6,030 bases of DNA from a virus (IMGVR_UViG_2711768069_000002), one strand, 5' to 3'; positions 3,965 to 4,740 are shown, counted from the first letter of the stretch. A program made the numbers and translations. The notes: generated by a model from the sequence alone, not told the origin.

Positions 3965-4186
3965 ATGGCAGATATCATTGATTCAGCATCAGAAATTGAA
4001 GAATTACAGCGCAATACAGCAATAAAAATGCGTCGCCTGAACTACCAGACTGTATCCGCAACTCATTGTTGTGAGTGTGGCGATCCGATAGATGAACGAA
4101 GACGCCTGGCAGTTCAGGGTTGTCGGACTTGTGCAAGTTGCCAGGAGGATCTGGAGCTTATCAGTAAACAGAGAGGTTCGAAGTGA
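3965..4186 (+). CDS. DksA/TraR-family C4 zinc-finger protein (lambda orf73-like), 73 aa
   Basis: The product contains CCECGDPIDERRRLAVQGCRTCASCQ, i.e. CxxCG-PI-E-RR…CxxC. From memory this matches the zinc-finger signature of F-plasmid TraR and phage TraR homologues, and the protein is the same length. Confidence 0.85.
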   Translation: MADIIDSASEIEELQRNTAIKMRRLNYQTVSATHCCECGDPIDERRRLAVQGCRTCASCQEDLELISKQRGSK

Positions 4187-4740
4187 GCGAAATTAATTAT
4201 CAGGCACTGCGTGAAAAGGCAGAAAAAGCAACTAAAGGAAGCTACATCGTAGGGCATACATCTGTTAATCGGCATGGCAATTTAACAGGAGTTTTTGTTT
4301 GTCAAAAATGGAAAGAAGAACCCGGTGGTGTGATTGCGGAATGTCATGTTAACTGCCTGGTTGAAACAGATGTTCAGGCTTATGCAAACGCTGAATTTAT
4401 TGCTGCTTTTAATCCAAATGTTGCGCTGGCACTGCTGGATGAACAGGAAAGGAACCAGCAATACATCAAACGCCGCGACCAGGAGAACGAGGATATTGCG
4501 CTAACGGTAGGGAAGCTGCGTGTTGAGCTTGAAGCAGAAAAACAGCGGGCAAAAGTTCTATTTATGGAAAATGCTCGGCTTAAGTCAGGCATAGCCGGTC
4601 TGATACACCTCGGTATTCGATATGCAGATGTTGAGGTCATGAAAATTGCTGGAGATGCCCAGCTTTCTACTCCATGCACTGACAGCATCATAAACAGCAT
4701 TGCAGCAGGCATTTTCACCAAAGAGGGGGCAGCACGATGA
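4183..4740 (+). CDS. ea22: Ea22-like early-left protein, 185 aa, mosaic
   Basis: Start overlaps the upstream stop. The N-terminus MSEIN.QALRE and the central LALLDEQERNQQYIKRRDQENEDIALTVGKLRVEL segment resemble lambda Ea22 as I recall it. The segment between them and the C-terminus differ from lambda. Confidence 0.75.
   Translation: MSEINYQALREKAEKATKGSYIVGHTSVNRHGNLTGVFVCQKWKEEPGGVIAECHVNCLVETDVQAYANAEFIAAFNPNVALALLDEQERNQQYIKRRDQENEDIALTVGKLRVELEAEKQRAKVLFMENARLKSGIAGLIHLGIRYADVEVMKIAGDAQLSTPCTDSIINSIAAGIFTKEGAAR

Follow-up and report, generated by a model that had tools for sequence, protein, structure and literature searches.

Whether a single phage gene can be composed of segments with separate histories, and by what process such a gene would arise, is the question raised by an ea22-like coding sequence carried in the window, a 6,030-nucleotide stretch of viral DNA (IMGVR_UViG_2711768069_000002). 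A sequence-only reading had described the encoded protein as a lambda-like core between divergent flanking segments and had suggested domain shuffling as the cause. Evaluating this proposal depends on the identity of the gene and of its neighbors, which are as follows.

1055-1763, + strand: CIII, Kil and short Gam ORFs
1769-2539, + strand: Bet ORF
2551-3231, + strand: Exo ORF
3222-3410, + strand: Orf60a/DUF1317, by profile match
3383-3574, + strand: Orf63/DUF1382, by profile match
3585-3866, + strand: Orf61-like ORF, 93 amino acids (phrog_303)
3965-4186, + strand: orf73, a TraR/DksA-type zinc-finger protein of 73 amino acids (PF01258, E=1.9e-9; phrog_54)
4183-4740, + strand: ea22-like coding sequence, 185 amino acids, start codon GTG, stop codon TGA at 4738-4740 (ORF list, Pfam PF13935, phrog_368)

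The order of these genes is collinear with that of lambda, P27, and 933W, and ea22 occupies its usual position (exo, orf60a, orf63, orf61, orf73, ea22) on the + strand, which reads as the lambda pL transcript does. The left conserved flank of ea22 is formed by orf73, which lies inside a block (window 3400-4231) that is 96.2% identical to lambda and whose stop codon overlaps the GTG start of ea22 (GTGA), as it likewise does in lambda. The 185-amino-acid protein is matched by the Pfam family Ead_Ea22 (PF13935 / IPR025153) at 120.8 bits versus a cutoff of 27 (E=8e-35), with amino acids 2-151 aligned to the entire model (positions 1-139 of 139), and its match to phrog_368 has an E value of 2e-60. 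Both the N-terminal helix of the family and the core LLDExERNQQYIKRRDQENEDIALTVGKLRVELE are present, and among 41 homologs the columns of the helix and core are invariant. With family membership and genomic position established, 4183-4740 is an intact, ordinary ea22 allele in the early exo-xis region of a lambda-like prophage, and would be expected to be transcribed together with the remaining early leftward (pL) genes.

Two annotation details of the neighboring genes deserve mention. The lambda RefSeq record has no orf73 coding sequence between orf61 and ea22, and lambda DNA at 30392-30613 (~1893-2114 of the fetched locus L001, minus strand) is ~96% identical to the window orf73 at 3965-4186; the gene is recognized in the literature (PMC9239242). 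The Orf61-like ORF could begin so as to encode 93 amino acids, as in 933W ST933Wp10 (282 nt), or at an internal ATG at 3651, the start from which the P27 and PhiR5_1 versions are annotated (71 amino acids). Since homologs have been annotated at two lengths, the true start is ambiguous.

When the protein is compared with lambda Ea22 (NP_040612; BLASTP, E=2e-23), amino acids 1-16 align with lambda 1-16 and amino acids 82-119 are near-identical to lambda 38-75. Between these two stretches the window protein has 44 extra residues, and beyond amino acid 122 there is no BLASTP alignment to lambda Ea22. Lambda DNA matches the gene region only at window 3400-4231 and 4421-4542 (93.4%), and nothing in lambda DNA aligns across 4232-4420. 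Put another way, the upstream DNA and first 49 nt are 96% identical to lambda, as is the core encoding amino acids 81-120 at 93%, and amino acids 17-80 and 121-185 are unrelated to lambda. Thus the resemblance to lambda at the extreme N-terminus and in the central charged segment had been recognized correctly, as had the divergence of the middle segment and the C-terminus. The 5' part had also been called AT-rich, and the DNA encoding amino acids 17-80 does contain 39.6% GC (GC3 23%) compared with 53.8% (GC3 59%) for the core and a window mean of 47.5%. Because ~10% of 192-nt segments of this sequence are equally or more AT-rich, this richness is a contrast inside the gene and not an outlier of the window.

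Alignment to the wider Ea22 family, a check advised at the outset, located recurrent sharp breakpoints. Relative to eight fetched loci, these divide the gene into five parts.

4183-4230, + strand: module A, amino acids 1-16 (MSEINYQALREKAEKA), the conserved N-terminal helix of all Ea22/Ead proteins, lambda included
4231-4422, + strand: module B, amino acids 17-80, an AT-rich N-terminal insert of Stx-phage type
4423-4542, + strand: module C, amino acids 81-120 (LALLDEQERNQQYIKRRDQENEDIALTVGKLRVELEAE), the conserved charged helical core
4543-4713, + strand: module D, amino acids 121-177 (…ENARLKSGIAGLIHLGIRYADVEVMKIAGDAQLSTPCTDSIINSIAAGI), a short conserved C-terminal helical module
4714-4740, + strand: junction E, amino acids 178-185 (FTKEGAAR) and the stop, with Shine-Dalgarno-like AAAGAGGGGG and a stop that overlaps the next ATG (ATGA)

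Module B is 97.5% identical to P27 and has no lambda match. Tested alone it gives only a weak Pfam match (E=1e-3), and the full Pfam model spans this segment, so that amino acids 17-80 represent the usual N-terminal region of the family; lambda is a reduced outlier in this respect (PMC7093339). Module C is common to lambda, P27, P22-like phages, and phage-plasmids. A cluster of histidines and cysteines is present in module B (H25, H31, C40, C54, H55, and C58; window 4255-4356) and is kept in homologs carrying a module B-type insert, and an insert of a different class (P0129) has CxxC motifs. The cluster in module B is a possible metal-binding site, as judged from the residues themselves.

The breakpoints that comparators have in common fall at 4182, 4231/4232, 4384-4425, 4537-4542, ~4713-4723, and 4939, as can be seen from the extents of DNA similarity to individual records.

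P27 (variant V3): window 3400-4542 at 97.5%, resuming at 5334 (second block 5334-5504 at 96.5%)
E. coli 2013C-3342 (933W-type tail): up to window 4537, 97.5%
PhiR5_1: window 3669-4723, 95.5%
Plasmid pR9-658-1: window 4182-4939, 95.1%
Phage-plasmid Cyrano: window 4182-4232 at 84.3% and 4384-4939 at 93.5%
P22-like Salmonella phage VSe13: window 4182-4214 at 97.0% and 4425-4723 at 94.3%

VSe13, Cyrano, pR9, and strain 8234 all become similar to the window precisely from 4182 onward, and the BLASTP similarity of homologs to the window protein ends at amino acid 118, 122, 126, 129, 135, or 139. Modules B and D occur together in the window and in PhiR5_1, B occurs with a different tail in P27 and 933W, D occurs behind a different N-terminus in Cyrano, VSe13, and P0134 (which has a lambda-type N-terminus), and lambda has neither. 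Every pairing of N-terminal type (B or not) with tail type (D or not) is therefore represented, with similarity breaking at shared positions, and the suggestion of domain shuffling stands. Even module D is composite: its informative sites change from PhiR5_1/8234 type to Cyrano/pR9 type between 4626 and 4671, joining a PhiR5_1-like 5' part to a Cyrano-like 3' end, which indicates that the gene is patched even relative to its closest relatives.

Uniform similarity to one Ea22 homolog along the whole length had been named as an observation that would speak against mosaicism. Strictly taken, such homologs exist, as pR9-658-1 (95.1% over 4182-4939) and P0001 (94% amino acid identity over 100%) are similar to the window allele in a roughly uniform manner and have the identical architecture. 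However, that comparison was badly posed, since the existence of a sibling allele leaves mosaicism relative to the family intact.

The modules are also distributed differently across the 5,426 complete E. coli genomes searched, 2,360 of which contain some part of ea22, with up to 8 ea22-like places per genome. Module B has 1,419 occurrences in 801 genomes and is nearly always chromosomal (22 occurrences on plasmids), and module D has 516 occurrences in 479 genomes, 215 of them on plasmids. A single place holding at least 80% of the gene is found in only 58 genomes. A match to the gene is present in 295 phage records, two of which contain at least 80% of it, and D is carried by 28 phage records. 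The 120 nearest homologs display 18 distinct 12-residue continuations after LRVELE, a number that exceeds the count of unrelated tail classes because several continuations differ by one or two substitutions. The closest proteins in databases, which are named ead/Ea22-like, have 185 amino acids at 94% identity and occur on hundreds of contigs, and the exact protein is absent from a collection of 5.8 billion proteins, where the best match is likewise 94%. The best DNA match to ea22 is 96.3%, and coverage of the window by any complete E. coli genome reaches 78% at most. From the limits on coverage (≤78%) and protein identity (≤94%) it follows that the combination found in the source prophage is unrepresented in those sets.

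These breakpoints and the independent assortment of the modules are direct observations. The gene is very probably a patchwork generated by recombination between ea22/ead alleles and now carried as an intact allele of a lambda-like prophage. The donor alleles would have been carried by lambdoid prophages, P22-like phages, and phage-plasmids. Three short stretches recur in all alleles, namely ~48 nt at the start of the gene, a core of ~120 nt, and the gene end with its ribosome-binding site; as these conserved stretches flank the variable segments, crossovers inside them could reassort the segments. Breakpoints at the edges of conserved islands mark the limits of similarity and not the sites of crossover, and an identical pattern would be expected under Hendrix's model, in which selection acts after illegitimate recombination.

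The strongest of the competing explanations, itself very unlikely, is that ea22 has been truncated or has decayed in the window, its 65 C-terminal residues being meaningless read-through after a deletion, as the RefSeq label on near-identical genes would imply. This idea draws on the shortness of the tail, which extends 68 residues after LRVELE as compared with 109-198 in others, and on the finding that module D tested alone belongs to no Pfam family. In addition, an annotation pipeline flags the homologs in NZ_CP077452 and NZ_CP107165 as pseudogenes, and the adjoining 47-amino-acid ORF is truly frameshifted. Against decay, the ORFs are intact in all seven of the relatives that were translated, and D copies always end at the ribosome-binding junction. 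When 1.84 billion cluster representatives were searched exhaustively, the tail was recovered in ~28 proteins of 74-242 amino acids, where it is always C-terminal and follows N-termini that are very different from one another; of 30 sequences scanned, which comprised 23 of these representatives, six close homologs, and the window fragment, 10 were without an Ead_Ea22 match. D has 21 residues that do not vary among copies ranging from 48 to 98% identity (K134, G136, I137, G139, L140, L143, G144, R146, V152, M153, A156, D158, Q160, S162, T163, P164, T166, D167, I169, I170, and I173), and phrog_11761 covers the tail.

Structure prediction points in the same direction. An AlphaFold2 model of amino acids 81-185 made with the D alignment has a mean pLDDT of 85, with values of ~90 or above to roughly amino acid 160, and comprises one long helix (82-146, pLDDT above 90) and two short ones (150-162 and 166-174). 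A Foldseek search with this model against BFVD and PDB returned nothing below E=1, as expected for a model that is mostly a single helix. Given the 21 invariant residues, the conservation of the tail is established, and together with the confident model it identifies D as a real conserved helical module and not a read-through remnant. Because its frames are intact and its tail is conserved, the gene was not accepted as a pseudogene.

A still less probable explanation is that the flanks diverged in place by rapid point mutation around a constrained core, without any exchange. The core and N-terminal helix are indeed under clearly stronger constraint than the flanks, and several insert types appear to have a loose frame in common (ATxGxW … NAEFIAAxNP). 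However, DNA that is 93-97% identical directly adjoins segments that cannot be aligned, the products differ by 44 residues in length, and GC3 is 23% in B versus 59% in C. Moreover, copies of B or D that are >90% identical are found on different partners, and the inner parts of eight N-terminal insert types (including that of the window), when compared pairwise, have no significant similarity to one another (all E>0.2). Divergence in situ was rejected on the grounds that the boundaries are sharp and the modules are independently distributed.

The least probable explanation, an assembly chimera in which prophage and phage-plasmid copies of ea22 were joined across their common core, might be entertained given the up to eight ea22-like places per E. 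coli genome, the likeness of the left part to chromosomal Stx prophages and of the right end to phage-plasmids, and the coverage of at most 78% of the window by complete E. coli genomes, but was rejected because every junction is present in at least one independent complete record (PhiR5_1 3669-4723; pR9-658-1 4182-4939), at least 80% of the gene is found in 58 complete genomes, and the private substitutions of the window are spread through B and C.

With recombination between alleles retained as the preferred explanation, the right-hand end of the gene and the DNA beyond it can be considered. The relevant features are as follows.

4737-4880, + strand: ORF of 47 amino acids that travels with the D/E end of ea22; a frameshifted copy of a 61-amino-acid protein
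4923-5345, + strand: ORF of 140 amino acids, a patchwork with pieces in common with genes of strain 8234, 2013C-3342, and PhiR5_1
5333-5349, + strand: a second canonical junction, AAAGGAGAGTGATATG, which ends the 140-amino-acid ORF (…RKGE) and starts the 168-amino-acid DUF551 ORF
5347-5853, + strand: ORF of 168 amino acids with a P27-like N-terminus (5334-5504) and a DUF551 C-terminus

Alignment of the 47-amino-acid ORF with Cyrano CYRAN_95 and pR9-658-1, both intact, places one extra base near 4851-4853, and phrog_15283, a profile of 61 positions, matches its amino acids 1-38. The intact 61-amino-acid form ends in TAATG, which overlaps the start of the next ORF at 4923. Neither ea22 nor the three downstream ORFs has a match in NCBIfam or PADLOC.

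The (K/R)GE end of Ea22 proteins has been described as being of unknown significance (PMC7093339). Among the 120 nearest homologs, 77 end in IKGE and 10 in GAAR. The window protein ends in …GIFTKEGAAR, without the usual GIRIKGE / (K/R)GE tripeptide, and has this GAAR-type end in common with Cyrano and pR9-658-1; it is absent in PhiR5_1, strain 8234, and VSe13. For PhiR5_1, P27, VSe13, and 2013C-3342 the gene end reads AAAGGAGAGTGAtATG, which consists of a Shine-Dalgarno sequence, the stop, one base, and the next start, and junctions of this type occupy L004 3029-3053, L005 3428-3452, L007 2169-2193, and L008 5440-5464 of the fetched loci. Lambda retains the KGE motif without an adjacent start codon. 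The ea22 gene of the window ends in AAAGAGGGGGCAGCACGATGA, its stop codon overlapping the ATG that opens a different ORF downstream, and similarity to P27 resumes at the canonical junction 5333-5349. This arrangement suggests that the GIRIKGE end may be a Shine-Dalgarno and translational-coupling footprint (AAAGGAGAG TGA t ATG) for the next gene and not a protein motif. If so, KGE would be dictated by translation of the downstream gene and would mark the right-hand recombination joint of the variable cassette; the terminal motif is probably due to a ribosome-binding site, and the protein itself would not require it.

Module D shows no similarity to the lambda, P27 (V3), or 933W tails. On the basis of these unrelated tails and the absence of both a Pfam family and DUF551, D appears to be none of the four published variants (lambda, V1, V2, and V3), with the limitation that V2 is set apart by the missing DUF551 only. 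Its residues from ~128 to 177 may constitute an autonomous, portable module of 45-50 residues that caps the stalks of many unrelated phage and phage-plasmid proteins, where it could contact a partner or close the oligomer. The joint reading, in which D is a portable module and the KGE end is a ribosome-binding footprint, is tentative and has slightly less than an even prospect of being correct as a whole. Neither part of it was found in the searchable literature.

The full-length AlphaFold2 model, built with 41 close homologs, has a mean pLDDT of 56. A helix is predicted for module A at amino acids 6-16, and module C is modeled at a pLDDT of 89-97. For module B the model contains strands at 26-28, 34-40, and 52-57 and a helix, all at pLDDT below 50, as are amino acids 17-76 generally. 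Prediction has consequently supplied only part of what was hoped from it, resolving the C-terminal helices and leaving amino acids 17-76 without a confident fold. The C-terminus is modeled as a continuation of the long helix plus two short helices, with no separate globular domain. Where a central coiled coil had been proposed, a long helix (82-146) is predicted, and its heptad periodicity was not significant (p=0.2) in a crude, home-made test over the same residues.

Several lessons about function can be drawn from studied relatives. The Ea22 proteins of lambda and P27 are tetramers formed via a central coiled coil (PMC10834534), and by analogy the window protein probably oligomerizes through its central helix. 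Lambda and Stx-phage ea22 favor lysogeny (PMC7093339), Ea22 tails vary from one phage to another, and Ea22 has no known binding partner (PMC10834534, PMC8614690). Family membership and synteny make a pro-lysogenic role the best guess for the window allele, which probably biases the phage to lysogeny, with the variable ends probably being the parts that contact partners. No experimental study of short-tailed ead/Ea22-like proteins was found in the searchable literature.

The mosaic organization of ea22 has already been published (PMC10834534, PMC7093339, PMC8614690). In the block scheme of Goddard et al. 2024, the N-terminus and the coiled coil are shared, lambda lacks a segment of 63 residues, and the tails are dissimilar; Dydecka et al. 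2020 described the truncated N-terminus of lambda and the divergent C-termini. Mosaicism is therefore a known phenomenon to which the window allele adds one more natural combination. These two papers contain neither the short D tail, as an additional class of variant, nor the interpretation of KGE, and both are minor additions. The natural chimeras do, however, form a ready panel of domain swaps, in which one N-terminus occurs with at least four tails and one tail occurs with many N-termini. Such a panel could be used to locate the pro-lysogenic activity within Ea22, which is relevant to the induction of Shiga-toxin phages. A further implication concerns annotation, as RefSeq labels intact short-tailed ea22 genes as pseudogenes. 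The short-tailed homologs in NZ_CP077452 (L002 3001-3405) and NZ_CP107165 (L003 3001-3405) carry this label with the comment "incomplete; missing C-terminus", and their frames are intact for 183 and 185 codons, respectively. These labels are probably an artifact of comparison with longer members of the family. Beyond correct annotation, the significance of the findings is small.

How the window allele relates to known systems can be summarized by comparison with each of them. Lambda Ea22 belongs to the same Pfam family and occupies the same place after orf73 in the exo-xis block, but has 23 unrelated residues between its first helix and core where the window protein has 64 (amino acids 17-80), and ends in IRIKGE instead of FTKEGAAR. 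Its alpha/beta C-terminal domain (amino acids 102-182, PDB 8DSX) has no counterpart in the window protein: a lambda Ea22 query matches 8DSX with E=1e-51, whereas the whole 185-amino-acid protein has no match at E≤1 among PDB sequences. Lacking both this domain and the short N-terminal region, the window protein would not qualify, by its sequence, as a lambda-type Ea22 in the strict sense.

The Stx-phage variants V1-V3, a classification due to Goddard et al. 2024, have an N-terminal segment of ~63 residues that is absent from lambda and present in the window protein. P27 (V3; ANJ65579) is alike in insert and core, with 97.5% DNA identity from orf60a through ea22 codon 120, but has a tail of 198 residues, and its similarity stops at 4542 and resumes at 5334, the start of the next common gene. 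The window has 791 nt in place of the 576 nt of P27, and 4543-5333 can be viewed as a putative replacement cassette relative to P27 that holds the D tail and two extra ORFs, bounded on the left by the conserved core and on the right by a ribosome-binding junction. The Ea22 of 933W (V1-type; ST933Wp09) resembles the window protein in its N-terminal insert and core and has a 140-residue tail unrelated to D. In V2 (Phi24B-type), DUF551 is fused to Ea22 (PMC10834534), whereas the window protein lacks this domain, which sits in the separate ORF at 5347-5853.

The closest counterparts are the short-tailed proteins of PhiR5_1 (XSB41273), Lys8385Vzw, P0001/P0005, pR9-658-1, Cyrano (CYRAN_94), and VSe13 (QOI68479), whose D tails are 92-98% identical in amino acids. 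Among these, Cyrano and VSe13 have N-terminal inserts that differ from that of the window, and the entire A-B-C-D arrangement is found in PhiR5_1, P0001, and pR9-658-1, whose proteins are 91-94% identical in amino acids to that of the window. None of the short-tailed database proteins is identical to the window allele, which is distinguished by private changes at R30 and E45.
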